From: an uncultured Gemmatimonadales bacterium
GTDB taxonomy: Bacteria > Gemmatimonadota > Gemmatimonadetes > Gemmatimonadales > GWC2-71-9
Direction of reading: 5' to 3'
Assembly: GCA_963821525.1 (NCBI GenBank)
Contig: CAWGED010000007.1
Location: forward strand, 31,134-95,133
DNA: 64,000 bases
Notes under the pieces: model-generated
Told to the model about the DNA's origin: nothing
The model's input: only the letters and a program-made list of their open reading frames with translations
Databases searched by the model: none
Part shown: positions 38,058 to 64,000 of the stretch, piece by piece
Layout: each line of letters begins with the position of its first letter
How positions within the stretch are numbered: position 1 is the stretch's first letter
Program-made: the position numbers and the translations under genes

Positions 38058-38137
38058 CCCCCGCCGCGCCGACTCGGTGGAACGCGTCGAGTCAATTTCT
38101 GGAAATCATTTCACACCCTCCAATTCGAAGGTGCACC

Positions 38138-38608: not shown

Positions 38609-38610
38609 GG

Positions 38611-38830
38611 GGATGTAAGGATGTTTGGATGTAAGGATGTTTGGATGTGAGGATGTCCGCTGTCATCCGAGCGAAGCGACGAGGGATCTACTCTCCTTTA
38701 CCCTGTTCTTGGGACCGGCGAGTAGATCCCTCGCTGGCTCGGGATGAGGTGTGGTTTTCACTCCTGCCGCACCCTGCCATCGTATTGACCGTCCGCACCC
38801 TGATCCCTGACACCTAACCCCTGACACCTG
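38611..38830. repeat. Octamer array (GGATGTNN)6, REP-like doublet (38661-38749) and heptamer array (CCTGACA-like)
   Basis: Directly visible. Confidence 0.85.
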
Positions 38831-38876
38831 TTTCCGTTGACCCTTCCGGTCGCCCTCACTAGGTTCTCCCGGCCAA

Positions 38877-38949
38877 GGGGCTGTAGCTCAGCTGGGAGAG
38901 CGCTGCGTTCGCAATGCAGAGGTCAGGGGTTCGATCCCCCTCAGCTCCA
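38877..38949 (+). tRNA. tRNA-Ala(CGC)
   Basis: GGGGCTG/CAGCTCC acceptor stem, anticodon loop TTCGCAA, GGTTCGATCC T-arm; CCA not encoded. Confidence 0.95.
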
Positions 38950-38958
38950 CTGTTTCCC

Positions 38959-41900: not shown

Positions 41901-42325
41901 TGGGCCGTGGCGCTGAATGTGACCTCAACTGGTGACCGTCCCAGCGCGCGCGCCTTGACCTGTACCGCGCCGGCCCGAGTGCCCAGCACCCAGCGACTCC
42001 AGGCTCGGCCATCCGAGCCGGTCATGGCTGTATCCGGAATGAGGTCTTGGGCGGCGCTCGCGCCTACGGGGGCGAATTCGACCGGCTGATCCGTAACCGG
42101 ACGATCCTTCGAATCGGTTATCCGAACAACGAGCGAGTCGGACAACAGGCCGCCGGCCACACCGGTCTGTCCATCGCCGCTGATGATTTCGATGTGACTC
42201 GGCAGGCCTTCGGCGGGGACCGTGATATCGCCGCCGCAGCGGAGTGCGACGGCGAGCACAAAAAGAAGTAGGAATAGCCGGAAAGAGCGCGGGCGAGACA
42301 AGGCGGAGCACCCTCGGGTCAGCAA
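38959..42325 (-). CDS. Large surface lipoprotein with Ig-like (Big_1) repeats and a C-terminal RCC1 propeller (frameshift ~40965)
   Basis: Repeated SGDGQTG..G..L...LVVRV.D, W.LG..AG; seven RCC1 repeats. Confidence 0.85.
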
Positions 42326-42392
42326 AATTGCGGCATCCAGAGTCCCTTTTCCATTGTACGGGTTGGCTCAGAGTCGCGCTAGATTGGCCGAT

Positions 42393-42408
42393 AGGCACAC
42401 CGCTTGCC
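42393..42408 (+). promoter_or_regulatory. Putative sigma54 promoter
   Basis: AGGCACACCGCTTGCC ends 12 nt before the ATG of the HD-GYP gene. Confidence 0.55.
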
Positions 42409-42420
42409 CTTCAGTAGGGC

Positions 42421-44004: not shown

Positions 44005-44127
44005 TTGTCTTGAGTCGTGGGTCGTGGGTCTTCTGACACTTCTAAGAAGTTCTTCACTCCTGATTCACCATAGTCTGTACTACGTGGGCCGACTTTGGAC
44101 CTTATCACTCCACAGTGCGAGGATCCT

Positions 44128-44529
44128 ATGAAAGTCGCCGATCTGATGCGGAAGCCGGTACGGAGCATTCTCCCCGATGCCACGGTCGAAGAAGCGCTGG
44201 TCACCCTGGCGGACTATCACATCTCAGCCCTTCCGGTAGTGGACGCCAAGGGACGGATGGTCGGGGTGATTTCAAGCACCGATCTCCTCGTCGCCGAGGC
44301 GGAGGCGGCTCACAAGGACGCGCTCCTGCAGCTTACGGAAGACACTGAGGTCCGGGAGATCATGACGCCGCGGGTGCTCACGATCGGACCGGGAGCCAGT
44401 GTGAGAGAGGCAGCGGAGCACATGCTCTATGCCGATGTGCACCGGATCTTCGTGACGGAGGGTGATCGTCCGGTCGGGGTCATTTCTGCGAGCGACATCG
44501 CGGGGGCGGTTGCGGCAGGGAAGCTGTAA
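44128..44529 (+). CDS. CBS domain protein
   Basis: Two CBS repeats (ISALPVVD..G.MVGVIS; VGVISASDI). Confidence 0.9.
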   Translation: MKVADLMRKPVRSILPDATVEEALVTLADYHISALPVVDAKGRMVGVISSTDLLVAEAEAAHKDALLQLTEDTEVREIMTPRVLTIGPGASVREAAEHMLYADVHRIFVTEGDRPVGVISASDIAGAVAAGKL

Positions 44530-44700
44530 GAGAAAAGCGGGAACGGGGAACAGGGTGTCAGGGATCAGGTGTCAGGTGTCAGGTGATTAGGGCCAACGCC
44601 TAAGATCCCTCGCTGCGCTCGGGGCTGAGGTATACCCTTCGCTCATTCCCGTTCCCCGTTCCCCGTTCCCCGTTCCCTTTTCCCGTTTTCCCATCTCCCT
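44530..44700. repeat. Inverted heptamer arms (GGGAACG, CAGGTGT / TTCCCCG) around a single REP-like unit
   Basis: REP unit AGATCCCTCGCTGCGCTCGGGGCTGAGG at 44603-44630. Confidence 0.85.
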
Positions 44701-45084
44701 TCCTCTTCCGCTGTTCAGCTTCTCCCGCAGTCCTGCCCCAAGGTCCGATAGACAGCCCCTAAATCACTGAATAGGGTACAGCAGGTGGGGTGTGTGTGCC
44801 GGGGCGGCGTAAACCCTTTCAGGTCATTTGCTAGGCCAATTGCCGCGCTGGTGAGCCAGGTAGGCCGCGGGTCGATCTAAATGCTGGTGAAACAGTTCCG
44901 CCGGAGCACTCTGGTTGATCACTCGCTGATCGTTCGGCGCGCGAGTAGAACCCTCCAGCCCTCCCTCAGTTCGCCCTGCCGCCGTTCCGGCGCCGCAATT
45001 CCCGACTACTCGCCAACTTGGTGCCGCACTTCCCGCGAGGGACCGCATACGCCAAGTGAGACTTTTGTATTTCGGAGGTGAATC

Positions 45085-46044
45085 ATGGCTACGAGTTTAC
45101 TCGATGGCCTGAAGAGCATGGTGACGCCGGAGTTCCTCTCCGGCGCGGCCCGCAATCTCGGCGAAAGCGAAGGGGCTGTCGCCACGGGTCTCGGTGCAGC
45201 CTTCCCGGCCATCCTCGCCGGTATCGTCGCCAAGGCCGGGGATTCCCAGGCGATGCGTCCCCTCTTCGACCTGATTTCGAGTCCCGCGAATGACGGTAGC
45301 GTGATTCGGGACCCGCGACTCGCCCTCAGCGCAACACCACAATCCCCGCTCGGCGCCGCGGCCAGCAAGCTGCTCTCCGGTGTGTTCGGCGGTCAGTCGT
45401 CTCCAATCGGTGATTGGATCTCTCGCTTCGCCGGTTTCCGTTCCGGCTCGGGCTCCACGCTGCTGAGCATGGCGGCACCGCTGGTGCTTGGCCTCCTGGG
45501 AAACCGCGTGCGCACGGGCGGACTCAACCCCGGAGGCCTCGGCAACCTGCTGCTCGCTGAGAAGGACTCGATCATGCGAGCTCTTCCGGCGGGATTGGGC
45601 TCGATACTCGGAATCAAGGACACCGGCATTTCGGCCCCGCGAATCCCGGCGCCCAGTAGCAAGCGCTGGCTGGTCCCCGCGCTGGCCGCTCTGGCGGTCG
45701 TCTTGGTCGTCTGGGCGCTGGGCCGCAATCGTCCGGCCGACCAGGCCGGCGGAGAGATGGCTGCGGGAATGGCCCCGCCGCCGGCGGATACGGCCGCAGC
45801 ACCGGCCGCCCCCGCTGACATGAAGTTTGTCTGCGGCACCGAGAACATCTCTTTCGGCCACGTCGGAGACCGGGCGGTCCTGACCACCAGCCTGGGCAGT
45901 CTCGATCTTCGCCCCGTGACGACGGCTTCGGGTGCCAAGTACGTGGCAGTGACGGATTCGACCACGAGCTTCTGGAACAAGGGTGAGAAGGGGACCCTTA
46001 AGCTCAAGGGGAAGAAGTATCCGGAGTGCACGCTGGAGAAGTGA
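45085..46044 (+). CDS. DUF937-like N-terminal domain + TM + MliC/PliC-like C-terminal domain
   Basis: A...LGESE.A, LL.MAAPLVLG.LG; F.C...ASGAKY...FWNKG.....C. Confidence 0.75.
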   Translation: MATSLLDGLKSMVTPEFLSGAARNLGESEGAVATGLGAAFPAILAGIVAKAGDSQAMRPLFDLISSPANDGSVIRDPRLALSATPQSPLGAAASKLLSGVFGGQSSPIGDWISRFAGFRSGSGSTLLSMAAPLVLGLLGNRVRTGGLNPGGLGNLLLAEKDSIMRALPAGLGSILGIKDTGISAPRIPAPSSKRWLVPALAALAVVLVVWALGRNRPADQAGGEMAAGMAPPPADTAAAPAAPADMKFVCGTENISFGHVGDRAVLTTSLGSLDLRPVTTASGAKYVAVTDSTTSFWNKGEKGTLKLKGKKYPECTLEK

Positions 46045-46103
46045 GAAAAGCGGGAACGGGAACAGGGAATAGGGAAAGCGTGAGGAGTGAGGAGTGAGAA
46101 GGG
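46045..46103. repeat. Heptamer arm (GGGAACA-like, GTGAGGA)
   Basis: Starts with AGAAAAGCGGGAACGGG, as at 44531. Confidence 0.7.
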
Positions 46104-46446
46104 ATGTTGTCGACAACCTCCGGCATCAGGACGGCCGAGGGACCCTGGTCATCAAGGGAACCTCGTATCCGGAGTGTACTCCGCGCGGTGAGTAAACGCC
46201 GTCGACGGGACGCACTCTCATAGCAGTACCTGCTTTCGGCGTCGGCTGCGGCTCGACTGGAATTTCTCGACCGCAGCCCCCGCTGAGGCCGCTCGTGTCA
46301 GGAGACGGGGCGGAGTAGGGAAAAGATCTGGTAGGAGTTGAAGTTCTTGATGTGAGCGAAGCGCAGCGAGAGGGTATCGCGAGCGTAGCGAGGGGGACCG
46401 ACTCATCGAGTTCAGGTGAGTAGGTCCCCCGCTTACATCTCACGCC

Positions 46447-47106
46447 CTATTGGGGCTGCTTCACGATCCGCAGATAGGGCCTGGGCGCCTTCCAGCCAGC
46501 GGGAAATTTCTGCTTCGCCTCGTCGTCCGAAACCGCCGGCAGGATGATCACATCGTCGCCCCGTTTCCAGTTCACCGGGGTCGCGACCTTGTGCTGGCGG
46601 TAAGCTGCATCGAGTCGAGCACCCGCAAGACTTCGTCGAAGTTGCGGCCGGTGGTCATCGGGTAGCTCAACATCAGCTTGATCTTCTTGTCGGGGCCGAT
46701 CACGAAGACGGTCCGCACAGTCGCGTTGGTCGCCGCGGTGCGGCCTTCCGAGGTGTCGCCCGCTTCGGCGGGCAGCATGTCGTAGAGTTTTGCCATCTTG
46801 AGCTCCGGGTCGCCGATCAAGGGGTAATTCACCGCGTGACCCTGAGTCTCTTCGATATCGGCGGCCCACTTCTGGTGGCTGCTCGACCGGGTCCACGCTG
46901 ATCCCGATGATCTTGCAATTGCGCTTCTCGAATTCAGGCTTGAGGCCGGCCATGTATCCCAGCTCGGTGGTGCACACCGGCGTGAAATCCTTGGGATGCG
47001 AGAACAGGATGGCCCAGCCGTTGCCGATCCATTCGTGGAAGTTGATCGTGCCCTGGGTGGTGTCGGCGGTGAAATTCGGAGCTTCGTCATTGATGCGTAG
47101 CGACAT
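46447..47106 (-). CDS. 1-Cys peroxiredoxin (two frameshifts)
   Basis: FSHPKDFTPVCTTE, YPMTTGRNFDE, VATPVNW. Confidence 0.92.
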   Translation of the reverse strand: MSLRINDEAPNFTADTTQGTINFHEWIGNGWAILFSHPKDFTPVCTTELGYMAGLKPEFEKRNCKIIGISVDPVEQPPEVGRRYRRDSGSRGELPLDRRPGAQDGKTLRHAARRSGRHLGRPHRGDQRDCADRLRDRPRQEDQADVELPDDHRPQLRRSLAGARLDAAYRQHKVATPVNWKRGDDVIILPAVSDDEAKQKFPAGWKAPRPYLRIVKQPQ

Positions 47107-47326
47107 GGGTCCTTCCTCCCCGATGCGAGCCAACGGTATGTGTCCTGCAGACCTAACCCCTGTCCCCAGCCCCCTCGCTCCGCTCGGGGCGACGCCTATT
47201 GGGAAGGGGGAACGCGATGGACAACTCCTGATTCAAAGGGGATACGATCGGAGGGCTGCATTATTCTCACCCCATCCCCCTGTCCCACTTCCCACCCCCC
47301 AACCCCGGTTTTACTTTTACCGCCCC

Positions 47327-47399
47327 TGCCCCTTGGTGTAACTGGCAACACGCCTGACTCTGGATCAGGAGAGTCCTGGTTCGAGCCCAGGAGGGGCAA
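47327..47399 (+). tRNA. tRNA-Gln(CTG)
   Basis: TGCCCCT/AGGGGCA acceptor, CCTGA-CTCTGGA-TCAGG anticodon arm, GGTTCGAGCC. Confidence 0.95.
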
Positions 47400-47402
47400 C
47401 TT

Positions 47403-47439
47403 GAAGGTCCGATACCATTTCGGTGGATCGGGCCTTTTC
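47403..47439 (+). terminator. Terminator after tRNA-Gln
   Basis: GAAGGTCCGAT...ATCGGGCCTTTT. Confidence 0.75.
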
Positions 47440-47609
47440 GCTTATGCGCCCGCTCTAGCCGTTTCTGCGACCATTTCTCCAGTGGCGGGCAGGCACCTGC
47501 ACCAAGATCCAATGGTCGGCCCAATTCCGGCTCCCTACCTTCGGCCTTGGAGCCGGATTGCATTCCTACCTAGTCTGGTTTCATGCCTACCCATTCACTG
47601 GAGAACCCT

Positions 47610-48142
47610 ATGGGTACTTACACGCGTGGCACTTGGCCACTTGCCCTGTTTGTTCTATTCGCCAACCCGTTGATGGCACAGGACAAAGACCCTCCGCTCA
47701 AGATGGTCTACGCCGTCTGGAAAGACATAGGCGGAGCCGCTTACACCGTAAGCAGATGAACAAGAAGAACTACGACAAGGTCGAAGCCTGGGCGGTCATC
47801 GTCAAAGACTCGACTGGCAAGGTGGAGGTCACGCAGAGGGGCAATAAGGCCGGCGGCTCCGACAGGGCAATGCAGGCCAGCGTGATCATCGACACCGCGG
47901 TCGCGAGGCTGGGCGCGCTGCCGGCGAATGCTGGCGAAAACGCCAGCCAGTACAGGCCGGCGAGTGGGCCCGCCAGCCGCTTGTCGGAGGGGGATCTGAA
48001 GAAAGTCGTCAGCATGCTCCACCCCAACGAATCCGCGCTCCTCGCGATCTCGCCGAAGCCGGACGTCGCGGATGTCGAGAAGTTCATGGGGATGGGGGGG
48101 CATGGTACCCCCGAGAAGGTCGTGATTGACCTCCAGCAATAG
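47610..48142 (+). CDS. Secreted hypothetical protein, DUF1269-like (frameshift ~47750)
   Basis: GGAG RBS, signal peptide, AVIVKDSTGKVEV, L.PNESAL. Confidence 0.55.
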
Positions 48143-48230
48143 GCACGGTATGGCGTGCGAGGCGGCGGCCGTGAGGCCGTCGCACAGCTCGCGCGAAGAG
48201 TAAGTGCCGGAAGTCGGGGGTATGGCGGTC

Positions 48231-48309
48231 CCTGGACCAGGATGGTTCTGGTTCGAGCCGCAGGAGGGCAATAGAAGCCCGGCAACGACTTTGGTCGTGC
48301 CGGGCTTCT
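48231..48309 (+). repeat. Degenerate tRNA-Gln 3'-half (att-like) plus terminator
   Basis: CCTGGACCAGGA..GTTCTGGTTCGAGCC.CAGGAGGGCAA, then GAAGCCCGGCA...TGCCGGGCTTC. Confidence 0.75.
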
Positions 48310-48437
48310 CCAATCTACGGGGTGAGTGAGTTGGTGTGTGAGTCAGTGAGTGAGTTGGTCCGTGAGCCTCCACGGAGTCACTTGCAAACTTCGACATCTG
48401 TGCGAGGAAACGGAGACAAAGTCGAGCATTCAGTGCT

Positions 48438-48556
48438 GCAAACTCCAGCATCGGGTGACACGAACTCGCGTAAATGGTAGCAAGTTGCTGGAATTCAGGC
48501 GGTTACCGCGGCCCCTCTGGATCAGGAGAGTCCTGGTTCGAGCCCAGGCGGGGCAA
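48438..48556 (+). repeat. att arm plus near-perfect 42-bp tRNA-Gln 3'-half
   Basis: 48515-48556 equals 47358-47399 with one mismatch. Confidence 0.92.
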
Positions 48557-48689
48557 TGCCAGGGGAGAGATCCCCGGGCCTTTTTTGTGGGCTCGGCCTG
48601 CGGCTCGAGCCCAGGTGGAGGCAACCCGAAGCCCGGTGGTTGCTTTGCGCTGCGACCGTAGCTGTGTGCCGAGGCGGCGGAGGACGCCA

Positions 48690-49781
48690 GTCGCCGACCA
48701 TCAATATCGACCGGGATCGTGGCCCGCCAAGTCCGGCTGGTCGCTCGGTCCCACCAGCAGCAAGTGACCGTGATGTTTCCCGGAAAATCGGCGGGGATCC
48801 CCTCGATGGTCCACCGAAGGGTCGTCAACTCGACCTCGGGCACCCCGCCGCCCAGGCGGAAGTTGCCCGAAGGTCCATGCGCAGTGCGCCGGGATCGAGT
48901 CGACGTCGAATCGACCCCACTCGGCCCGAAAGGGCCCGTCCAGAATCATGGTGGCGAAATTGCAGCTCGACCACTCGTTCACGACGTGGGGCAGTCGTTC
49001 CGCGTCGTAGGTCACGGTGGCAGTCCCGCAGGGCATGTGGTGCGTGTGATCGCCGACGTTCGCCGCCAGGGTTTCCTGGATCAGGTCGAAGCCGAACTCC
49101 GGCCCGAAGCCCAGGGCCAGGCGTGCCAGGTCGGCCTCGGTCAGAGCCGTGAGCGAGCCGCTCGGGTTGGGCAGGTTCGAGAGGGCGAGACCGGTCGTGT
49201 CAATGAATGCCTCGAAGAGATCGGGATCACTCCCGGTGAACGACTGTCCGTTCGCGGTCACCTCCCAGGACTGCGAGCCCCGCGAATGGCGACGAGGCAC
49301 GTTGCCGAGCAACGATGGACGTGACGGTGAACTGGTCCATAGTGACCACGGTCGCCTCGTCGACGGTGACCTCGATCGCAGCCGTTCCAGCGGAAGGTCG
49401 TGAGGCATGACGACGCCGCGTCCGTGGCGCAGAACTCGGTCGAGTGGGCGAGAGGCCGTCGCCGCTCCAGCGAGGCGGCCGGCGCCGTCGAGCACGAGGC
49501 CCGGGAGAACCTCACAGCCCCGGAATTCGACCGTCCGCCCGGCGGCATCGTTGACGTAGGTGGCTACGCCCCGCTGCACGCAGGAGACGTGATTGTCGAA
49601 GAAGGAAACGCCTTGACCCCCGGTGGCGACGGTGAATCCGGCCACGGCCAGCGCCGCGGCGATCCGCTCGTTCAGCTCGCCGCTTGGATTCGGGCCGCTG
49701 GACTCGGAATGACAGCCGCGCCAGAACCAGCACGGCGGCGAGCCCGGTTGAGGCCACCAGCGAGCCGCAACGCTCCCGCAT
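48690..49781 (-). CDS. Hypothetical secreted/lipoprotein, multiply frameshifted; ends approximate
   Basis: Signal-like N-terminus; Cys-containing coding-like segments across frames. Confidence 0.45.
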
Positions 49782-49822
49782 ACCGAGTACTCCGATGATG
49801 TCCGAGTGGGTGCCGAGGAGCC

Positions 49823-51308
49823 TCATGGCCCCGGCTGCTGCGCTTCGGCTCCGGCCGTCGCCCCGACCTGTTGGGTCTCGCCGTCCAGGAGATAGTCGAG
49901 CACCTGGGCCGCCGTGTACGACGTCCTCCCGCGGAGGAACCCGTCGATCGACGCCAGATCGTCGCCGCTCGTCAGCAGGGGTGGTTCCACCCGTCCTTCC
50001 GCTCGCACCTGCGCGTGGTCGATGTTTGCCATGAGCGCGTTGCACAGACAGTGGCGACCCACGGTCTCCTCCAGCCGACCGCCCTTCTCGACATACGCTT
50101 GCACCGGCTCCGCCGGGCAGCGATAACCCAACCGCCCGTCCGGCCGCTGGTACGGAGTGCGGAGGTACCCGAGGTCACAGACCCGCTCGCGCGGCGGGGA
50201 CGCGTGTAGCGGGTCTCCCGGCCAGTGCACCACCTTGAAGGGATAGCCCGTGGGTGATGCCGCGGGATCGGTAAACACCTCTACCGCACCTTGCGCAGCA
50301 TGCAGCAGCACGGACCGCTTGTACTCAGCCGCGAGGCCGGACTCCTCGGCGAAGGCGAAGAGGGTGCCCACCTGGATGCCCGTGGCCCCGGCATCGAGCG
50401 CCCCACGAAGGGCCGCCGGGGAGCCGGTGCCGCCGGCCAACCAGAACGGCAGCCCGAGCTCGCGGACCGCCGCGAGGTCCACCACGTCACGTTCGCCGTA
50501 GATCGGCTCACCGTGTCCATTGAGCCGCAACGCCCCCCGCGGCGGCGCGTTGTGGCCGCCCGCTGTGGGTCCCTCGATCACGAAGCCGTCGACGCGTCCG
50601 CTTGCCTTGCGCACGAGCATGGTGGCGAGCGAGTTGCTCGCGATGATCGCAAGGAAGCGCGGGCGGGTCAGGAGCGCCGGCGGGGCGCCCTCCCAGTGGT
50701 CGCGCGGGTCGAGCCGGACGGTCGCGTCGAGCTCAGGCGACCCGCCGTCGATCTCGAGCCGTATACTCGCCGGTTGGTGGGCAGCGAGCGCATCGAGCAC
50801 GCCTGGGATCTCGCGCGGTATCCCGGCGCCCATGAGCACGTAATCCACTCCGGCGAGCATCGCGCCGTACAGGATGGCGAGATTGGGAAGCTGTATTTTG
50901 GTGAGGAGGTTCACGCCGACCGGCCCGTCGTGGCCCTCCTTTGCCAGCCAGACCTCCACGAAGCTGGCCAGCATGGTCAGCTGCTCGCGAGCCCGACCGA
51001 CGCCCTTGTGATACATGCCGAGCATGCGATAGGGCACGCCGGCGGGGCGCCCGCCCTCGCGGTAGTAGCGCCGGAGAGCAGCGGCCGCGATCCCAGGCAG
51101 GGGAAAGTGGTCCATCGCCCGCCGGAGGTCACCTCCCGGATCGCCGTCCTGCAGGCGTCGGACGAACACCGAGTCGATCGCCGTTGCCGAGACGACGCCG
51201 AGCTGTCCGCGAGAGGGAGACGGCACGGGCGAGTCGCCAGCCCGAAACGCCGATGCCCATGCCGCCCTGAATGATCATTGGGAGCGGGGAGCCAGTGGAC
51301 GATGCCAA
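49823..51308 (-). CDS. Nitronate monooxygenase / 2-nitropropane dioxygenase family (frameshift ~51210)
   Basis: IIQGGMGIGVS, MGAGIP, IEGPTAGGHN, GIQVGT.F, SPTGYPFK. Confidence 0.88.
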
Positions 51309-51522
51309 CACCTACGCCTCCGCCGGGGCGGCAAACAAAGGGGAGTTCACGAGAGGGCTACGTCCAGTCTAGTGGCGGGTCCGCAAGAATCGTCAAAGTC
51401 TTGATGAGATGTCCTTCATGACTTGGGCGGGGGCCGACGTGAAGCGTTCCGGGCCTAGACCCGCTGAATCCCTCGAAGTGCGTGGCACCGGGAAGCATCG
51501 TCGGTGTCCGCGTGAGGCGGCC

Positions 51523-52563
51523 TCACACGTTGAACCGGATACTCATGATGTCGCCGTCGGCGACGACGTAGTCCTTCCCCTCGAGCTTGAACTTCCCCGC
51601 CTCCTTCACCGCGTGCTCCGAACCGTGCGCGATGAAGTCCGGGTACGCCATCACTTCCGCCCGGATGAAGCCGCGCTCCAGGTCGGTGTGGATCTTCCCC
51701 GCCGCCGCCCGGGCGTGGGTCCCGCGCGGGATCGGCCAGGCGCGCACTTCGTCCTCCCCCACGGTGAAGAAGGAGATGAGGTCCAGCAGCTCGTAGGCGG
51801 TGCGGACGAACCGCGCCCGCGCCGACTCCGTCAGGCCGAGGTCGGCGAGAAAGGCGGCCTGGTCGGCGGGATCCAGCAGCGCGATCTCGGCCTCGACGCT
51901 GGCCGAGAGCACCAGCCCGGCCGCACTCAGCGCGGTCAGCCGCTTGGCCAGCGGCTCCGGCATCGGCTGGACCACCTCGTCCTCGCTCCGGTTCAGCACC
52001 GCGAGCAGGGGCTTGTCGGTGAGGAAGGCGAACCCCGTGAGCATGTCGCGGTGCAGGGCGGTCTCGGGCAACGACCGGATCGGCCGCTCGGCCTCCAGCG
52101 TCTGCTTCATCAGCTCGAAGGCCGCAATTTGAAGGGGGTCGGTCTTGTCCTTCTTCGCGCGGTCCAGCTTCCGCTCCACCATTTCGAGGTCGGCCAGGAC
52201 GCACTCGGTGTAGAACGCCTCCAGCTCGGCGGCGGGATCGGCCTTCGCCTCCACCGCGGGATTGGGGAACGCCCGCAGCACCAGGCACAGCACGTCCTGC
52301 GAGCGGATGGGCTCTAGCGCTTTCCGCGAAAGACTCTTGTGTTCGCCGCCGTGCTCGCCGGGGATGTCGCTGAAGACGATTTCGGCGTAGGTCGTCTTCT
52401 TCGGCTTGAAGATCGCGCTGAGCCGGTCGATGCGTTCGTCGGGCACTTTTGCGGTGCCGAGATGGACCGACCCGCCGAAGCCGGTGGGGATGTTCAGGCC
52501 GGTCAGGGTATTGAACACTGTGGTCTTTCCTGAACCGGCGAAGCCAACAAGACCGATCTTCAT
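51523..52563 (-). CDS. YchF-like ATPase (DUF933), divergent paralog
   Basis: GFAGSGKTT, VPDERIDRL, DIPG, FFTVGEDEVRAW, AAGKIHTD.ERGFIRAEV, EGKDYVV.DGD. Confidence 0.9.
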   Translation of the reverse strand: MKIGLVGFAGSGKTTVFNTLTGLNIPTGFGGSVHLGTAKVPDERIDRLSAIFKPKKTTYAEIVFSDIPGEHGGEHKSLSRKALEPIRSQDVLCLVLRAFPNPAVEAKADPAAELEAFYTECVLADLEMVERKLDRAKKDKTDPLQIAAFELMKQTLEAERPIRSLPETALHRDMLTGFAFLTDKPLLAVLNRSEDEVVQPMPEPLAKRLTALSAAGLVLSASVEAEIALLDPADQAAFLADLGLTESARARFVRTAYELLDLISFFTVGEDEVRAWPIPRGTHARAAAGKIHTDLERGFIRAEVMAYPDFIAHGSEHAVKEAGKFKLEGKDYVVADGDIMSIRFNV

Positions 52564-52895
52564 CCTGGCGCTGGTGCGTGAGACGGTCGCGCGGGCTCGG
52601 GGCGGAGGACCTTGTGGGCGGCTTCCGTCAAGTCGGCCTCCATGGCCGGAGACAGGGATGTCCGAGAGTCGCCCAAACATACGGGCCGGGCCCGGCTCAG
52701 CCAGTTGGCGGGTCGGCGCCCGGTGGAGCCGTGGCGCGGCGCCTGAAGGAATAGGCAAGCATCGTCCACGATTAGGCTGAACCCAGCCAGGCGGAGAGGC
52801 TTACCTTCGTTCCCAGCAGATGAAGAGAGGGAGCAGGAATGAGCAAGGTTAAAAGGGGCGCGACCAAAGCATTGAAAGAAACGGAGCATATCGTC

Positions 52896-55018
<2,123 letters not shown>

Positions 55019-55069
55019 TTGATCCCCCTTTCGGTGATCTGGGGTCTGGTGAGCGGAGAACTCATAAGC

Positions 55070-56921
55070 CTACTTCCCCAACCCTACCCGATCCAGCAGG
55101 CGCTGGAACCGCTGGTCTCCGCGCAGGAAATCGTACGCGGGATTCACCTTGAGGGTCACCATTTCGCTCGAGCGCTCCGCCAGCGCCTTCTCCAGCCAGG
55201 CGAGCGTCTCCTCCTTGTCTTTCGCCCCGGCATACCCCCACGCGAAGATGCGGGCCTGGACCGAGTCGCGCGGGCTCGACCGCACCATCTCTTGAATGGC
55301 GCGCCGCGCCTCGGCCATCCGGCCGGCACACCCGTACACGTAGGCCAGGGTGGACCAGTGGACAGGCGCCTGCACTATCGGCCGCCAGCGCTCCTCTTCC
55401 GCGAGCGCCTGGTCGAACATCCCTTTGTCGGCGTAGGCCGAGACGATGAGGTGGGCCCGACTGATATTGGGGTCGATCGCGAGCACCGAACGCAGCTTCT
55501 CGATCGCGAGATCGTACTGCCGCGAGAAGTACAGGATGGCGCCGTTGTCGGCCGCGATGATGAGGGACAGCGGATCGAGCTCGCGCGCCCGCCCGCTTTC
55601 ACGGAGGGCCTCGTCGAACCGTCCGCGCCACATCAGGTGCTCCGCATACCAGTGGTGGGCGGTGGCGTAGTTGGGATTCAGCGCGATCGCCTGTCGGAAT
55701 TCCCGCTCGGCGGTCTGCCAGTCCAGGTCATGGTTCTGGACGATCAGCGCGAGGGCGGTATGCGCCTCCGCGAGGGAGGGATCCAACTCCAGCGCCTTGA
55801 GCGCCGCGGCCCGGGCCCGCGCCACCAGCTCCTGCTCCGGCTGAACGGTGTAGACGGCGTGCACCACCTCGGCGGAGGCGAGGGCCGCCCAGCCGCGGGC
55901 AAAGCCAGGATCCCGCTCGTAGCCCGCTCGAAGTAGGAGACGGCGGCCTCGATGTCTGCCTCCGTCCGCTGGTTGAAGAAGTACTGCCCTCTCAGGAAGA
56001 GGTCGTAGGCCTCGATATCCCGAGCGGGAGCCGGCGTCTCGCGGCTCGGGGCCGGCACGGGGTGCCCGAGGCTCGACTCGATCGCATCGGTGATCTCCTG
56101 GCAAGCTCGCCCTGCAGCGTCAGCAGGCCGGTCAGCTGGCGGTCATACTCCTGCGCCCAGAGCTGCGCTTGGTCGCTGGCCCGAACGAGGTGGGCCGTCA
56201 CGCGGACCGTGCTCGAGTCCCGCCGCACGCTGCCCGTGAGCACGTACTGCACGCTGAGCTCCCGCGCGATCCGCTGCGGTGGCGCCTGGCTGTTCTTGTA
56301 CTGCATCACCGATGTCGGGGCGATCACGCCGAGGACCGTGGGGTCGCGATTCCCGAGCTGGGCGATCATCTCCTCGGTGAGGCCATCGCTCAGGTACTCC
56401 TGTCCCTCGTCCCCGGTGAGGTTCTGGAACGGAAGGACCGCGAGCATGACCCGTCCATCGCGGGGCGCGGCGTGTCCGAGCGGGCCCACACGATGGCGCC
56501 GCGCGAGGAGGAGCGTCACGCCGCGGCGAGCGCGGGCCAGGCCCATGCTCGTGGCGGGGCTGGACGGGAGACTGTCGGCCGGGAGCACCGGCGCCACGAA
56601 GCAATATCCTCGGCCGGTGATGGTCTGGACGAATTGGGGCTGTTCGGAATCGTCCTTGAGGACCTGCCGGATCTTGCGGATAGCGCCGTTGATGCTGTTG
56701 TCCACATCGAGGAAGGCGTCCTTCCCCCAGATGCGTTCGGCGATCTCTTCCCGGGTGACAAGTTGGCCTCGCCGATCGGCCAGGAGCAGGAGGATTTCCA
56801 GCGGGATGCGTTCCAGCTTCACCCGTCGGCCCGCGCGCCGGAGTTGGTACGCGGCGCGGTCCAGCTCAAAGTCCTCGCCGAAGCGAATGGATGATGGGGC
56901 CTGCTGTGGATCGGAGGCCAC
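55070..56921 (-). CDS. Winged-helix (OmpR/PhoB-type) + TolB-like + TPR regulator (frameshifts)
   Basis: FELD...L.R.G..VKL, LVTREEI...IW, IQT..GRGY, LAVLPFQNL, TPR repeats. Confidence 0.85.
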
Positions 56922-57115
56922 GCCGGGTCCTCGAGAGAGGCTGCGTTGCAGAAGTCATGAAAATTAAGACGGCCGACAGGTCTCCACTATTGCCGTCGGA
57001 GCGGAGCGTTCGCAAGACTGGAATCGCCGTTCCACCCCCTCGCCGGACCGACCGAGGTGTCGCCACCAAAGGCTCGCAGCCGTCGGGGGATCGCTGTCTC
57101 ACGGCAGGGGGACCA

Positions 57116-58635
57116 ATGACGACCGCCATTTCACTAACCCACCGGCAAACCTGGCCGGGCTTCCAGGGGAAGCGGGTCCCCCTGGTACTTCTCGCCGCGA
57201 CCGCGCTGCTCCTGGCCTGCGGGCCGGACCGCACGCCCCTCTCGCCCACCAGCCGGCCGGACCTCGCGGCCGGTGCAACAGGCGGCATGTTCCTGTTGCC
57301 CGACCCCACCGGCCAGATCGGGACGGTCAGCACCGACCGGTGCTATCGACGCCGGCAATCCCTTCTTCCAGAGCCTGGGCACCAACGGGCGCAGCTGCGC
57401 CACCTGCCACCTTCAGAGGTGACGCCTTCGGCCTGAGCGCCCAGGCGGCGCAGGCCGCCTTCGCGGCAACCGGCGGGACGGATCCGCTGTTCGCCGCGGT
57501 GGACGGAGCCAACTGTCCGTCGGTCACCGTCGCCGCCGGCGCAGCGGGGCACAGCCTGTTGCTGGGGCAGGGGCTCATCCGGATCCCGCTGGCTGTCCCG
57601 GCCGGTGCCGACTTCACGGTCGCCGTGGTCCACGACCCCTACGGCTGCGCCCTGGCGGGGTCTCCTTCGCAGCTCTCGGTGTACCGCCGGCCGCTGCCCA
57701 CGACCAATCTGCGCTTCCTGAGCGCCGTGATGTTCGACGGGCGGGAGACGATCCAGCCCCTGACCGACAAGACCACGTTCAAGGCCAACCTGAAGACCGA
57801 CCTGGCGCACCAGGCGATGGATGCGACGCTGGGACACGCCCAGGCCACCGCGTCGCCCACGGCCGCGCAGCTCAGCGCCATCGTGAATTTCGAGCTCGCG
57901 CTGTTCACGGCCCAGCAGGTGGACAACTCCGCCGGCGCGCTCGAGGCCCAGCGGGCGACCGGCGGTCCGGACGCGCTGGTCAGCGCGCCCTTCTACCCGG
58001 CATCAACGACCCGCTCGGCGACAATCCCAAGGGCACCGCCTTCGATCCCAACGCCTTCACGATCTTCGCTCCGTGGCAGGGCCTGAGCGGCTCGGCCCGC
58101 TATGTGGACGCGCGGAAGGCGGTCGCGCGGGGGCAGGTCGTGTTCAACACCCATCCCCTCTCGATCACCGACGTTGCGGGCCTCAACGATGCGCTCGGCG
58201 CGCCGGTGATCAACGGTACCTGCACCACCTGCCACGACGCCCCGAACGTCGGCAACCATTCGCGTCCCGTCCCGCTCGATATCGGGACCAGCCATGCCGG
58301 CTCGTACGAATCTGATGCCCACGTCCTCGCTGCCCTTGGGCAGCTGACGGTGCCAGACCTGCCGGTTTACCAGGTGACCTGCACCGGGGGGCCGCTCGCG
58401 GGAACGGTCCGCTACACCTCGGACCCCGGCCGCGCCTTGATCTCGGGCAAATGCGCCGACCTCGGCCGCATCAAGGGCCCGATCTTGCGCGGGCTCGCCG
58501 CCCGGGCGCCGTACTTCCACAACGGCGCTGCGGCGACGCCTCGCTGAGGTGGTGGAGTTCTACAACCAGCGCTTTCAGATGGGGCTGACGGACCAGGAGA
58601 AGGCCGATCTGGTGGCGTTCCTGAAATCGCTCTAG
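57116..58635 (+). CDS. Di-heme c lipoprotein, cytochrome c peroxidase/MauG-like superfamily (frameshifts)
   Basis: Lipobox LLAC, CATCH, CTTCH, K.P.LRGL..RAPYFHNG, EK.DLVAFL. Confidence 0.8.
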
Positions 58636-58670
58636 GGCCGAATGCGCACCTCGCCGTCGGCGCGCTCGGG

Positions 58671-58898
58671 TCAGCGTGCCCTTGGGCGACGAACGAAAAC
58701 GACCAACGTAGCCAGAGCGACGCCGAAGCACATGCCTGTGGCGATCAGCTGCACGACGTCGACTCCGCGAATCGTCGCGAAGCTGGGCTTGCCGACCATG
58801 CTGAAGAGGCTCAAGAGTCCGAACAACAACGGAACCCAAAGCGGGGCCAGTTGGCGCCGGCTCTGACGACGCCGATCCTCGTCCGTTTCCTGGCTCAT
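58671..58898 (-). CDS. Small two-TM membrane protein
   Basis: GAGGAGGAAG RBS; two hydrophobic helices. Confidence 0.6.
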   Translation of the reverse strand: MSQETDEDRRRQSRRQLAPLWVPLLFGLLSLFSMVGKPSFATIRGVDVVQLIATGMCFGVALATLVVFVRRPRAR

Positions 58899-58919
58899 GA
58901 CACTTCCTCCTCGCAAAGG

Positions 58920-59171
58920 GCAAACTCCAGCATCGGGTGACACGAACTCGGGTGAATGGTAGCAGGTTGCTGGAATCAGGCTGGTTACTAGCGGCCCCTC
59001 TGGATCAGGAGAGTCCTGGTTCACGCCCAAAGGTGGCCTTCGGCTCGAGCTCAGGAGGGGCAATGAAGCCCGGCAACAAGTCAGCTGTTGCCGGGCTTCG
59101 TTCACCTGCCGGTTTGAGTTCTTTGTAAGCCAGTGAGTGAGTTGCTCTGTGAGTTTCTACGGACTCACTAG
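58920..59171 (+). repeat. att arm, interrupted tRNA-Gln 3'-half, terminator and GTGAGTGAG arm
   Basis: Similar to 48438-48556, 48273-48309 and 48346-48385. Confidence 0.88.
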
Positions 59172-59264
59172 GTGACTGGAGCCACCCTCGTGCGCGTGTG
59201 AGGCCGTTCGCACTGCTGGAGCTTACCCCTACCCGACTCATGAACGGCCACCGCCTTCCGAGGG

Positions 59265-59792
59265 TCACACCCTACACTCCAGCGACCCAACATCTCTGGT
59301 CACCTTGAAATCACCGCTCGGCAGCGAGACGAAGTTGAAGAAGAACTGTCCTCTGAAGGACAGCCCCGGAGTCGGGCTGATGAAGTAGTATGTCTCATTG
59401 TAGGTGAAGACGAAGTTGGGCGCCGGACCCGTCGGCGAGTTGAAGCCCTCGTGATTGACGTCGTGCGACCGGTAAGTCGCGCCGGTAGCGAGACCAGTGC
59501 CCGTTTCGGAGACCACGACTTGGAGTTCATGGTGCAGGAAAAAACCCTCATCAGTGCCGACGAAATTGTCCTCCGCGGACAGCGTCCCGATCATGTGAAT
59601 GTCTTCACCATTGCATGGGCTGTTGAAGAAGATCTCATCCAGCGGGGTGATAGACGAGACATGATCCGTGATTTTCGCTGCCTGGGAGGTGAGAGCGGGC
59701 GCGTTCTCCGCGGTCGGACCGGACTCCGGGCCGCAGCCGGTCACGAGGGCGGCCGCCAGCATCGGCGCTATGGTCCATGTCAGTGAACGCAT
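59265..59792 (-). CDS. Hypothetical lipoprotein, tandem paralog 1
   Basis: Lipobox VTGC; SPCNGEDIHM.GT, GTGL.TGATYRS. Confidence 0.8.
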   Translation of the reverse strand: MRSLTWTIAPMLAAALVTGCGPESGPTAENAPALTSQAAKITDHVSSITPLDEIFFNSPCNGEDIHMIGTLSAEDNFVGTDEGFFLHHELQVVVSETGTGLATGATYRSHDVNHEGFNSPTGPAPNFVFTYNETYYFISPTPGLSFRGQFFFNFVSLPSGDFKVTRDVGSLECRV

Positions 59793-59988
59793 CGTTGGAT
59801 CCTCCGAGTCGGGTGTGTGAGACTGCTTCGTGGGCTCGCCTTCCCACTCACGCTGTTTTCGGTTGGCGAGCTGAGCCTAAGCGATAGGTCACCGCCGTGC
59901 ATGCTCTGGTAACTGCCGAGGGCCGCTGAGGTGGGTCCACGTCCTCAGATAGTTGACGCGACCTGTGGCCGTCAGCGCCTTCCGGGCC

Positions 59989-60507
59989 TCAGACCCGACA
60001 TTCCAGCGACCCAACATCTCTGGTCACCTTGAAATCACCGCTCGGCTGTTCGACGAAGTGGGTGAAGTACTGCCCTCTAAAGGACAGGCCTGCCGTCCGA
60101 CTGATGAAGTAGAAGGTTTCGGTAAAGGTGAGGGTGCGGAAGTCCGACTCAGGGGTCGGCGCGCTCCAGCTCTCGTGATTGACGTCGTCCGACCGGTACG
60201 TCGCCCCGGTGGTCAGGCCCGTGCCCGTTTCGGAGGTCACGACCTGGAGTTCATAGTGAACACCGGCGCCAGTGCCGAGGAACGTGTCCTCCGCCCTCAG
60301 GGTCCCGGTCATGTGAATGTCTTCCCCATTGCAGGGGCTGACGAAGATGTAGTCCAGCGGCGTGACGGAGGAGGAATGCTGCACCGGCATCGCCGCATTG
60401 GCCGTGAGCCCGGGCGCGTACTCGGCCGTCGGGCCGGAGTCGGCGCCGCAGGCGGTCAGCAGCGTGGCGACCAGTGGGGTCAGTCCGGCCAGTGTCAGGG
60501 ATTTCAT
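59989..60507 (-). CDS. Hypothetical lipoprotein, tandem paralog 2
   Basis: Lipobox LTAC; identical C-terminus SGDFKVTRDVGSLECRV. Confidence 0.8.
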   Translation of the reverse strand: MKSLTLAGLTPLVATLLTACGADSGPTAEYAPGLTANAAMPVQHSSSVTPLDYIFVSPCNGEDIHMTGTLRAEDTFLGTGAGVHYELQVVTSETGTGLTTGATYRSDDVNHESWSAPTPESDFRTLTFTETFYFISRTAGLSFRGQYFTHFVEQPSGDFKVTRDVGSLECRV

Positions 60508-60750
60508 CGTCAGGTTCTCCAGGTGAGGGAAGAAGTTCAGCGGGGCTGTCACCGCCATCCACTGTGTGAAGTGGCGCATCGGGGGCCCGCGGGGTAACGT
60601 CAACTGCAGGAGCTCCCATCTCTGAACACGGAAAACGAGGCCGAAACGGCTCAGCCGGCATGGCTGCGGCGCGGTTCATGGATGTAGTCCACCCCGGCGG
60701 GAACGCTCGGTGTCCGGCGCTCCATCCTTTCAGTGGTGCGCGGTTGCGCG

Positions 60751-61323
60751 ATGACCCCTAGATCAGACCACGTAGTGACCGACCTGCTGCAGGCGTGGGC
60801 ATCGGGAGATCAGGGGGCGCTCGATGAACTTCTGCCGCTCGTCTACGACGAGCTGCGACGCCAGGCTAAGCGGTACATGCGTGCGCAGCCAGTCGGCCAT
60901 ACGCTTCAGACGACAGCGCTGGTGCACGAGGCCTATCTCCGACTGGTCGGTCAGTCGGACCTCGAGTGGAAGGGCCGGGCGCACTTCTTCGGAGTGGCCG
61001 CCAAGGCGATGCGCTCGATACTGGTTGATCACGCCCGAGCCCGTAGCGCGGCGAAGCGTGGCGGGGCGGCGCGTGCCATCACGCTTGGGGATGGAGGCGG
61101 AATCGCGGGAGTGCAGATGAGCGTGGACGTGCTAGCGCTCCACGCAGCGCTCGGGCAGCTAGCCGAGCTGGACCCGCGAAAGAGCGAACTGGTGGAACTG
61201 CGTTATTTCGGAGGGCTCGGGATTGACGAGGCGGCGGCCGTGCTCGGCGTCTCACCGGCGACGGTGAAGCGGGAGTGGATCACCGCGCGGGCCTGGCTAA
61301 GGCGTGAGTTGAGTGTCGCCTAG
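60751..61323 (+). CDS. ECF sigma factor, TIGR02999 (kinase-associated) type
   Basis: VT.LL.AW..GD..AL..L.PLVY.EL, HTLQTTALVHEAYLRL, VELRYFGGL, TVKREW..ARAWL. Confidence 0.92.
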   Translation: MTPRSDHVVTDLLQAWASGDQGALDELLPLVYDELRRQAKRYMRAQPVGHTLQTTALVHEAYLRLVGQSDLEWKGRAHFFGVAAKAMRSILVDHARARSAAKRGGAARAITLGDGGGIAGVQMSVDVLALHAALGQLAELDPRKSELVELRYFGGLGIDEAAAVLGVSPATVKREWITARAWLRRELSVA

Positions 61324-61338
61324 GGCGAGCGTGCCGGT

Positions 61339-63946
61339 ATGAGCCCGAACGAGCCTGCGTCACGGCCCACGCCCGAGCGCTGGCGCGAAGTCGAAGCCAT
61401 GTTCCTGGCGACGCGCGACCAAGAGTCGGACGAGCGGGCGGCGTTTCTCGAGCGGGCCTGCGGGGCGGATGTGGCCCTCCGGCACGAGGTCGAGTCGCTG
61501 CTCGCCGCCGACCGCGGGGCGACAGGATTCCTGGAGCCGCTGGGCGGGACCGTTTCTCCGATGCCGGACCTCGAGACCGCTGTGAGGGTCGGGTTGGCCG
61601 GCCGTTATGCGCTCGAGCGTGAGCTCGGGCGCGGCGGCATGGCGACGGTCTACTTGGCCGATGACCTCAAGCACCCTCGCCGAGTGGCGATCAAGGTGCT
61701 CGATCCCGAGCTCGGGGCGGTGCTCGGTGCGGAGCGCTTCCTGCGCGAGATCCGCATCGCGGCCCGACTCAGCCATCCGCACATCCTTCCGCTCCACGAT
61801 CGGGGACGCTCGACCTGGGCCTGGGCCGGCCCGTGCTCTTCTATGTCATGCCCTATGTCGCAGGCCAGTCACTGCGGGAGCGGCTGCGCGAGGAACTGCA
61901 ACTGCCGATGGAAGAGGCCCTCGGCATCGCCCGCCAGTCGCCGACGCACTTGATCATGCCCATCGAGAAGGCGTGATCCATCGCGACATCAAGCCGGAAA
62001 ACATCCTCCTCTCGGACGGCCAGGCGGTGCTGGCCGATTTCGGCATCGCGCGTGCTCTGGATGCCGCCGGGGGGGATCAGGTGACCGAGGCCGGGCTCGC
62101 GATGGGCACTCCGGCGTACATGAGCCCCGAGCAGTCCGCGGGGTCTGTCGGCCTCGATGGGCGGAGCGACATATACGCTCTGGGGTGCGTCGTATACGAG
62201 ATGCTCGGTGGCCAGCCTCCCTTCCCGGGGCCGACTCCTCAGGCGATTCTGGCCCGCCACGCCATGGACTCGGTGCCCTCGCTCCGGACACTGCGACCGG
62301 CGGTGCCTGTCCCACTCGCGCGAGTGGTCACCCAGGCGCTGGCCAAGGTGCCGGCGGACCGGTTTCTCACGGCGCGCTTATTCGCCATGGCCTTGGCTGC
62401 GCCGCCAACGGGCGAGAGCCAGGCGGTGCCGGGCGACGGTCGGCAACGGCGCAAGCTAGTGGCCGCCGTGGCCGGTCTAGCGATTGTGGTGGGAGGCGCT
62501 GCCGCCGTGCTTGCGCGCCGGTCGGCCGGGGTCAACTCGGGCCGCCCGCTGGCCGAGGAGGAGCGCTCGATTGCGGTGCTCCCCCTCGTCAATCTCACTC
62601 CAGGGAAGGAGAACGAGTTCCTCTCCGACGCCATCACCGGCGAACTGATCGACCAGCTCAGCCGAGTCGAGGGCCTCCGCGTGGCGGCCCGTGCCTCGGC
62701 CTTCGCGTTCAAGGGGAAATCACCCGACCCGCGGGAAGTGGGCGAGAAGCTCCACGTCGCCACCATGCTGGACGGAAGTGTGCAGGTGTCGGGCAACCGG
62801 GTGCGTGTGACCGTCGAGCTGGTGAACTCGCGGGATGGTCGCCGCGTGTGGTTCGACACCTACGATCGGTTCCTCACGGACGTGTTGACAGTACAGGTGC
62901 AGATCGCCCGGGCCATCACCGGCCCGCTCGAGCTCAGGTTTGTCACCTCGATCGGCACCCCGGTCGTGAGCGGTGCGAGTACGGACCAGGAAGCGCACAA
63001 GCTGTATCTGAAGGGCCGTCAATACTCCTACTCCTTCGATGGGGACGAACGTCGGCTGGCCGTCGAGTACTTCCGCAAGGCCGTGGAGCGGGACTCCAAC
63101 TATGCCCTCGCGTGGGCCGGGCTGTCCGACGGGTACAACCTGATGCTAGACGCGCTCGACTCGCGAGAGATGCCCGAAGTGCGGGAGCAGGCGCGCGCCG
63201 CCGCGCTGCGAGCGGTCGCTTTGGACAGCACGCTAGCCGAAGCACACGCGGCGCTCGGGAACATCCAGTACTTTATCGATTGGAATTGGGGTGCCGCGGA
63301 ACAGAGCCTCCGACGGGCGATCGCGCCAACGCCAACGATGCGGTGGCCCACCGGTGGTACTCGGCCCTGCTCACGATCGTGGGACGCTATCCGGAAGCAA
63401 TGGCGGAGGCCGAGCGCGCCGAGCGGCTGGACCCGCTCAACCCGTTCATGGTCCTCGGCACGATCTGGGCTTCCACCACTGCGCGGGATTATGGAGGGGA
63501 GCCGCGGCAGCTCGCCGGTGGATGGAACTAGACCCACATCCGAGCATGGGTACACGACGCTCGGCCGCATGCAGTTCTTCGAGGGGAAACAGCGCGAAGC
63601 GTTCGCGAATCTTGAACGGGGAGCGAAGCTGGAGAAGGGCATGCCCTACTCCGTGAACGCCCTTCGCCTGGCATGGGCTTACGCCGCGTCGGGCCAGCGC
63701 GAGAAGGCACGACAAATCCTCGGCGGGGTTCAGCGGGAACCCGGGCGAGCTTGGCCACCCGAGCACCATGTTCGCCGCAGTCTACGCCGCCCTCGGAGAC
63801 CGAGAGAGCGCATTCGACTGGCTCGAACGCGCGTTTGCTGGCGTGAGAGCGAGATCGAGATGATGGGAGCCATGCCAGAACTCGACCCGCTGCGCGGTGA
63901 TCCCCGCTTTACCAGCTTGCTGATGCGCATGCGGATACCGACGTAG
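61339..63946 (+). CDS. Ser/Thr protein kinase with TM, TolB-like and TPR domains (frameshifts)
   Basis: LGRGGMATVY, VAIKVL, IHRDIKPEN, DFGIA, GTPAYMSPEQ, SIAVLP..NL. Confidence 0.9.
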
Positions 63947-64000
63947 GCATGATCTGGTGCCGCATCGGATTTTCCGGTGGCGGCGCTTTCCCTGTTTTGA

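Follow-up and report, generated by a model that had tools for sequence, protein, structure and literature searches.

Introduction

Cis-mobilizable elements (CIMEs) of the ICESt1/ICESt3 type have lost their integration and transfer genes, keep their attachment (att) sites and stack by tandem accretion at one target (PMC5704250). In Dehalococcoides, many ssrA islands lie in tandem behind a tRNA-type gene (tDNA); the repeats at their boundaries have a conserved motif upstream, and 15 of the islands have no integration module (PMC3146451). The integrase-free H47 island of E. coli is bounded by imperfect repeats of ~148 bp and is mobilised by outside functions, with multi-segment crossovers that leave hybrid sites; such long hybrid sites can form without RecA (PMC3191183). 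Prochlorococcus tycheposons (10.1101/2020.12.28.424599) and the additive flexible genomic islands of Alteromonas (PMC5217437) are seeded at tRNA genes and contain partial tRNA copies and fragmented integrases. Here we analyse a 64,000-nucleotide stretch of an uncultured Gemmatimonadales bacterium (the window), in which an intact tRNA-Gln(CTG) gene is followed by an array of small, integrase-free gene units separated by copies of the tRNA 3′ half.

Like CIMEs, these are stacked elements without integrase, with later arrivals at the same target and hybrid internal sites (PMC5704250). Unlike CIMEs, an array holds up to 16 units of one to four genes, several integrase types use one site, the left arm is often just a terminator, and single units are exchanged between genera with no adjacent helper seen. 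The Dehalococcoides ssrA islands share the tandem, repeat-bounded arrangement behind a tDNA and the frequent lack of an integration module, but use a serine recombinase at the tmRNA gene, whereas here tyrosine integrases, the tRNA anticodon loop and a 133-bp arm are involved. H47 is a single 13-kb island between two long repeats, whereas this array is tRNA-anchored with asymmetric ends. As in tycheposons and the Alteromonas islands, cassettes are gained, lost and common to several genera; tycheposons mostly carry their own integrase, whereas the Gemmatimonadales units mostly do not, and the available portions of those two papers do not describe a long conserved arm closing integrase-free single-gene units.

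The window is the final 64 kb of contig C7 in a 4.33-Mb, 19-contig assembly (G000, 81% complete), and since it ends with the contig, DNA further downstream cannot be read. We compared it with four genomes of the same genus (G001-G004; completeness of all five, 75-98%), with a family-level set of 401 genomes in 78 genera and with metagenome contigs. The metagenome runs containing the stretch are from soil and rhizosphere, and nearly all loci encoding the related integrase family are assigned to Gemmatimonadota. An earlier note on the window had proposed dedicated non-autonomous cassettes and an integron-like platform. We arrive at a different reading, which we consider rather likely to be right: elements of the cis-mobilizable type have accreted here in tandem, and the array still works as a place where cassettes are exchanged.

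Results

Movement of integrase-free units

Recent movement is indicated by a 2.65-kb unit that encodes a TetR regulator, a short-chain dehydrogenase (SDR), an unknown gene and a gene fragment. From crossover core to crossover core, the copy of this TetR-SDR unit in G004 is 99.1-99.2% identical to those in G498 and G506, which belong to a separate genus of the same family (g23). It occupies array positions 1, 3 and 1 in G004, G498 and G506, respectively, and its neighbours differ. A core locus of G000 shows 70-79% identity to four g23 genomes and 82-84% to G004, the cross-genus comparison having been made with G000 as reference rather than with G004 directly against g23. Compared with G004, unit 1 of the window is 97% and the block around a YchF gene 99% identical, as against 81-84% for most core DNA; in comparison with G002 and G003, whose core DNA is 90-95% identical, the contrast between cassettes and core is small. 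A unit with AraC and aldo-keto reductase (AKR) genes stands first in both G003 and the g23 genome G403, at 90% identity, and 4 of 12 repeated left-flank classes (95% identity) have more than one right flank. By these comparisons, integrase-free units appear to have moved recently between species and genera as exact units. They can hardly be just fossils, because one of them crossed a genus boundary at 99% identity.

The array is variable in composition. Arms are present in all four same-genus genomes, but units and order differ: unit 1, an empty unit, nitronate monooxygenase (NMO), YchF and AKR in G000; AraC-AKR, unit 1, NMO and YchF in G003; YchF directly behind the tRNA and then AraC-AKR in G001; and the TetR-SDR unit ahead of unit 1 in G004. 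The AKR block precedes YchF in G003 and comes after it in G000 and G001. The cargo DNA of unit 1 is 95-98% identical across all four same-genus genomes. In g23, the array of G498 comprises 16 complete units in 63 kb, of which 14 are closed by the 133-bp arm and 5 carry integrase stubs; its far sites match a shorter part of the tRNA than its near sites. The tRNA-Gln(CTG) gene itself is identical across genera. In G001, two contigs (C30 and C180) each have an intact tRNA-Gln(CTG) with different upstream DNA, reflecting either a duplicate locus or a binning mix.

The 133-bp right arm and its mosaics

Such units are closed by a right arm of 133 bp, in which a repeat occurs three times directly and once inverted. 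It was matched in 47 of the 401 family genomes and 17 of the 78 genera, and an alignment of 107 non-redundant copies, those from metagenomes having been picked by an exact 32-nt match, shows a conserved arm with a sharp outer edge; viral contigs gave no match to its pattern. We rejected the arm as a structured RNA: Rfam matched only the tRNA, and the whole arm folds no better than shuffled sequences (z of 0.22 and -0.36; -0.53 and -2.28 for the inner 65 nt). Covariation is uninformative, because the inverted repeat is nearly invariant (the same in 77 of 88 copies). An arm with a tRNA-Gln half also occurs away from the main array, beside tRNA-Lys in G334 (L137/L138 on C3) and upstream of tRNA-Ala in G373 (L136 on C1). 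The G334 array contains a second, nearly full tRNA-Gln copy.

We compared arms in pairs that lie beside near-identical cargo. Nine pairs with the same next unit have 5 arm mismatches in total, compared with 60 in seven pairs scored as having a different next unit, where the mismatches mostly form blocks toward the core. Three further pairs, with flanks too short for the neighbour to be scored, are also mosaic. Within the TetR-SDR unit, 9-11 differences fall in 2,520 bp of body and 9-14 in the 133 bp of arm. When counted by hand, with one pair reassigned to the same-neighbour class, the arm is mosaic in 5 of 6 neighbour changes and in 0 of 6 unchanged cases (Fisher p 0.015). At the left side the boundary is the core, as 4 of 4 pairs with different upstream cargo share no long inner arm block. 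Left arm-type repeats were found in 8 of 59 full-arm units, an undercount from a strict motif search that missed unit 1 of the window. Because the arm is usually mosaic when a unit's downstream neighbour changes, crossover points would usually lie within the 133-bp arm too, in addition to those at the tRNA core. An integrase acting solely at that core does not account for such arm-internal crossovers, which most neighbour changes show. This point appears to be new: we found no description of such Gemmatimonadota arrays or of arm mosaics in them, in a literature search that left most subscription journals and supplements outside.

Cognate integrases and the origin of the units

Tyrosine integrases of ~400 aa, convergent to tRNA-Gln(CTG) and ending just behind its terminator, are present in G046, G039 and G023, and an integrase lies behind this tRNA in 8 of the best 30 loci from a family search. 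Sister integrases stand at Pro, Ala, Ile and Arg tRNAs. The cognate integrases score as PF00589 and PHROG integrases and keep what we take to be the catalytic set R, K, H-x-x-R, W and Y; no recognised Pfam arm-binding domain was found in the two family members scanned. The family is matched in 129 of the 401 genomes (including loci L347-L375), and full-length relatives of the integrase piece in G464 occur in metagenomes with 70-76% identity over the C-terminal domain. In viral contigs integrase matches are weak and partial only. Since relatives have cognate integrases behind this tRNA, the sites in the window are probably attachment-site products of tyrosine integrases that cross over in the anticodon loop.

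The left arms connect the units to these integrases. The type A left arm of unit 1 aligns with arms in G462 and metagenome locus L190, where the C-terminus of an integrase comes immediately after the arm. In G464 the type B left arm (GAAGCCCGGCA hairpin and GTGAG repeats) stands before an integrase that is nearly full but frameshifted, and in G513 a type B left arm stands before an intact one behind tRNA-Gln(CTG). In G438, G210 and G461, a type B left arm and the 133-bp arm occur together with an integrase remnant in a single unit. Units homologous to window unit 4 (75-80% DNA identity) open with an integrase stub in G461 and L203. The integrase with the same arms that the earlier note had told us to look for thus exists for the left arms; with the exact right arm it did not turn up, as the intact type B integrases found by searching the family and genus lie on short contigs or have a diverged arm.

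Across 74 complete units from 30 genomes chosen for having the arm or the integrase, 5 contain a near-full integrase (>300 codons), 11 a stub and 58 none. All five near-full cases adjoin the tRNA, and the integrases of G023, G104 and G485 are broken. Among 40 metagenome units, the corresponding numbers are 0, 3 and 37. Pooled, stubs occur in 14 of 114 complete units and near-full integrases in 5 of 114, counts in which short contigs favour short units, strongly degenerate sites like that at 48230 are not taken as boundaries and the unrelated integrase of G039 falls outside the profile. Array members therefore do not each carry their own integrase, the rule by which the Islander program counts tandem arrays (it also rejects islands <2 kb; PMC4383910).

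The same left-arm integrases in relatives, together with the stubs in 14 of 114 units, indicate that the units are cut-down islands of the CIME type and not integron cassettes. Window units carry no integration or transfer genes and appear to derive by deletion from autonomous islands with the same arms. The earlier note's mobile integrase-free cassettes thus hold up as to recent movement and less well as to a dedicated non-autonomous origin; the integrase remnants that it named as a contrary sign exist inside units of relatives, the unit 4 homologues included, and none was found in the window.

Genes from parts of six autonomous or decayed elements encode excisionase-like helix-turn-helix proteins, methylases, a helicase and metabolic cargo, and of 44 proteins called, the 29 and 24 scanned include no virion or conjugation families. 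Arrays headed by an intact integrase occur in G373 and G046. For a helper in the same genome, tblastn and a profile hidden Markov model (HMM) of 27 integrases gave nothing at the site. The only PF00589 matches in G000 are three proteins on other contigs, presumably XerD, XerC and an integron integrase, which we do not regard as cognate. Large serine recombinases (PF07508) are found in none of the five genomes of the genus. G004 has a short integrase stub outside its array.

The array in the window

The features of the array are as follows.

47327-47400, plus strand: intact tRNA-Gln(CTG), the target gene; core (anticodon loop) from 47358
47401-47480, plus strand: left arm of unit 1, type A; terminator-like hairpin and two short direct repeats (~47455-47480)
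47583-48142, plus strand: cargo of unit 1; one gene, ~186 aa, no Pfam family
about 48230-48272, plus strand: site 2; degenerate tRNA 3′ half (76%) with an eroded right arm before it
48274-48381, plus strand: left arm of unit 2, type B; GAAGCCCGGCA hairpin and three to four 12-bp GTGAGTGAG repeats
48382-48514, plus strand: complete right arm, 133 bp, type B, with the three direct repeats, the inverted copy and a GTGAG-like site
48515-48625, plus strand: site 3; tRNA 3′ half 48515-48556 (41/42), hairpin, palindrome and T-arm module (~48590-48625)
48701-58904, no strand assigned: fused unit 3, the 10.4-kb unit of the earlier note
58920-58997, plus strand: right arm cut to its inner 78 bp
58998-59169, plus strand: site 4; tRNA 3′ half 58998-59063 with a 24-nt T-loop insertion, GAAGCCCGGCA hairpin, type B left arm
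59265-63946, no strand assigned: unit 4, interrupted by the contig end

The tRNA-Gln(CTG) gene is the sole intact CTG tRNA in the assembly. The displaced 3′ fragments lie downstream of it in the same orientation, and the clear copies begin at the first base of the anticodon loop, as had been claimed, which places the crossover point in the anticodon loop (site A in the classes of PMC4383910). Copies, hairpins (48274 and 59065) and GTGAG arms are where the earlier note put them, and a 25-nt core occurs exactly three times, compared with 0 in 100 shuffles. The arm that the note saw shared between 48438 and 58920 is indeed shared, but it measures 133 bp rather than ~77 bp, and its inner 78 bp are what is left at 58920; the same truncation is found in G002 and G003. 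The T-arm fragment at 48601 is also present, as part of a hairpin and T-arm module found family-wide, and it bounds no cargo. Two of the four sites are eroded. Neither unit 1 with its site 2 nor the internal join of the empty unit is an assembly artefact, since contigs of other studies read through both (run X1 over 47372-48303 for the former, run X10 over 48293-48487 for the latter).

The palindromic T-loop insertion of site 4 (59023-59046) recurs in 55 of 253 sites in several genera. A second T-arm copy behind the terminator, as at 48590-48625, occurs in 37 of 253 sites, again in several genera. These T-loop palindromes and T-arm copies, up to three of which stand in tandem in G211, look like repetitive extragenic palindrome (REP)-type units invading the sites.

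Unit 1 has a single gene, broken by an assembly indel near 47751; single-base indels are frequent in this assembly and typical of long-read assembly. Unit 2 is a 285-bp empty unit made of a type B left arm, whose 12-bp GTGAGTGAG repeats may be arm-type integrase sites, and the complete right arm. It probably derives, by deletion, from a ~540-bp unit found in G004. Both matching arms are retained only here: the right arm of unit 1 is eroded, that of unit 3 truncated and unit 4 cut. The earlier note was thus right about a one-gene unit of 0.8 kb and an empty one, but its single 10.4-kb unit is better read as a fusion of several former units. That stretch encodes an unknown protein of ~267 aa, an NMO family protein, a YchF paralogue, an AKR, a periplasmic sugar-binding protein, a winged-helix/TPR regulator, a cytochrome c-like protein (weak match) and a small membrane open reading frame (ORF). 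In relatives NMO, YchF, AKR and the binding protein each adjoin their own site, and relative to G003, G000 has lost the site between NMO and YchF as well as AraC, which is why we regard it as a fusion. The YchF-family GTPase (51523-52563) is a second copy, 37% identical to that on contig C5, and the cassette-borne YchF has 97-100% protein identity among four species. Unit 4 encodes two paralogous lipoprotein-like proteins, an extracytoplasmic function (ECF) sigma factor and a Ser/Thr kinase with TPR. The lipoprotein-like pair (59265-60603) stands in front of the sigma factor and kinase and consists of tandem paralogues without a Pfam family, at ~81-84% DNA identity in three blocks.

By a Pfam scan of 29 window proteins, the cargo comprises regulatory and metabolic genes, and no integrase, recombinase, phage, virion, packaging or conjugation/transfer family was detected; the 27-integrase HMM had no match in 47001-64000 with E up to 1. 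The earlier note's statement that no recombinase, phage or conjugation gene is visible was thus correct.

Several observations concern the surroundings. The distance from tRNA-Ala(CGC) to tRNA-Gln(CTG) is 8.4 kb in the window (38877-47326) and in G003 and ~10-300 bp in most relatives. The insert encodes RCC1/Ig-like, HD-domain, CBS, DUF937 and peroxiredoxin proteins, and we found no tRNA-Ala repeat at it behind tRNA-Ala. Contig C2 of G000 opens (1-45 onward) with a damaged tRNA-Gln piece whose insertion recurs at sites in G002 and G004, and it has many genes in common with the regions behind the G003 and G004 arrays; it is probably the continuation of the window's island. The ends of C1, C7, C9, C11, C13 and C15-C18 match other contigs at 85-99%, and the assembly therefore appears to hold strain duplicates.

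Comparison with integrons

Integrons are polar arrays of small exchangeable gene units that are added at one end. The present locus shares the polar array and the small exchangeable units, and differs in having no adjacent IntI, no attC boxes or strong arm hairpin, and a tRNA half in its sites. No attC R-box pair was detected in two arm regions, and genes of either orientation occur among the cargo, in relatives as in the window. What we take to be an IntI-like gene lies on contig C3 (L003, near 37947-38957), not beside the array; attC-like box pairs ~700 bp apart occur near it, separate from the tRNA array. The array works somewhat like an integron but is not one, and the integron-like platform of the earlier note fails on IntI, attC and orientation alike.

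Discussion

On good comparative evidence we class the locus as a well-delimited accretion array of the CIME type, with units that would still be exchanged across genera. In a first, well-supported step, small integrative elements, which fall into three or four arm types at least and each encode a tyrosine integrase of ~400 aa, would have crossed over in the anticodon loop of tRNA-Gln(CTG) and displaced older ones from the gene. Deletions would then have taken the integrase, often the left arm-type repeats and sometimes whole sites, a step supported by the stubs, leaving a tRNA half with terminator, one to four genes and the right arm. Third, as comparison shows, such integrase-free units pass whole between species and genera. 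Finally, units may leave or change neighbours largely by crossover between repeated right arms, performed by RecA or an arm-tolerant recombinase; the circle released, with a hybrid arm and core, may re-enter at a tRNA core, a visiting integrase of this family being the most likely agent. This arm-to-arm release followed by entry at the core is suggested by mosaic right arms, left edges at the core and few left repeats.

Several results weigh against this accretion array with continuing exchange. In contigs from four metagenome runs, no circle or excision junction was observed. None of 4 pairs showed the reciprocal product of an arm-by-arm deletion, which would be a shared inner arm before the same unit. 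The hand-counted cases are few, related and not independent, and the arm is identical in 1 of 6 neighbour changes. Arms within a genome are no more alike than arms between genomes, so no homogenisation is seen. In no unit was an intact integrase seen together with a 133-bp arm of the close type: the sole unit with an arm and an intact integrase, in G046, has a diverged arm, and the far end of the G513 element is unassembled. No helper of this integrase family was found in G000-G004. Two joints in the metagenome contigs were not counted as excision: that from 47399 to 48274, present in 3 of 4 runs, may represent a further site of this type, and that from 55027 to 47362 (2 of 4 runs) has unknown DNA between.

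A further-reaching version is possible, though we hold it only tentatively: a family-wide commons of cassettes in soil Gemmatimonadales, in which the right arm plus tRNA half would be a selected stand-alone handle, arm crossover would free circles, visiting integrases would insert them and genera would share the pool. If true, integron-like work would be done by lambda-type parts without a resident recombinase, and one pool of regulatory and metabolic cassettes would serve hosts in different genera.

It is less likely that the units are dedicated non-autonomous cassettes moved only by a trans-acting tyrosine integrase at the tRNA core, with arm mosaics secondary. Exact core-to-core units common to different genera, left edges at the core, the conserved and sharply edged arm in 107 non-redundant copies and the existence of full-length integrases 70-76% identical to the G464 piece all fit this explanation, as does the finding that G003 and G004 have different integrase-free units before unit 1, which adjoins the tRNA in G000 and G002. 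Lambda-type excision requires both arms, yet left arm-type repeats were counted, if incompletely, in few full-arm units. The mosaic arms in 5 of 6 neighbour changes, the stubs indicating an origin by decay and the failure to find a resident helper in the genus genomes likewise speak against it.

We find it rather improbable that exchange is now homologous only, with integrases having built the array and RecA swapping units after DNA uptake between the tRNA part and the 133-bp arm as anchors. Mosaic arms, a tRNA identical across genera, a ComEC-family gene in G000 and the lack of a helper in the genus agree with such exchange, but for units entering before an existing unit the left anchor is just 43 bp, left edges share no inner arm, and the strongly conserved repeat motifs of the arm suggest that a protein still reads them. 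Moreover, H47 hybrid sites arose without homologous recombination (PMC3191183).

That these are ordinary decayed islands, fixed after integrase loss and inherited vertically, is very improbable and largely refuted, since stubs, eroded sites and fused units, and the shorter tRNA match of far sites in G498, are outweighed by a 99% identical integrase-free unit in two genera, by cassettes more alike than core DNA within the genus and by the AKR/YchF order that differs between G003 and both G000 and G001.

The accretion array with continuing exchange bears on a long-standing question, namely how decayed tRNA islands keep moving and whether integrase, RecA or both move them; defined arms, intact candidate integrases and a mosaic signature make that movement directly testable. 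The tRNA-Gln(CTG) spot would be a gene-collecting site of a broadly known kind, its units apparently swapped between species and genera. Island finders that demand an integrase per unit and reject anything under 2 kb (PMC4383910) would miss most of these units, and much of the accessory-gene traffic may therefore go unseen in a soil lineage that is abundant and mostly uncultured.

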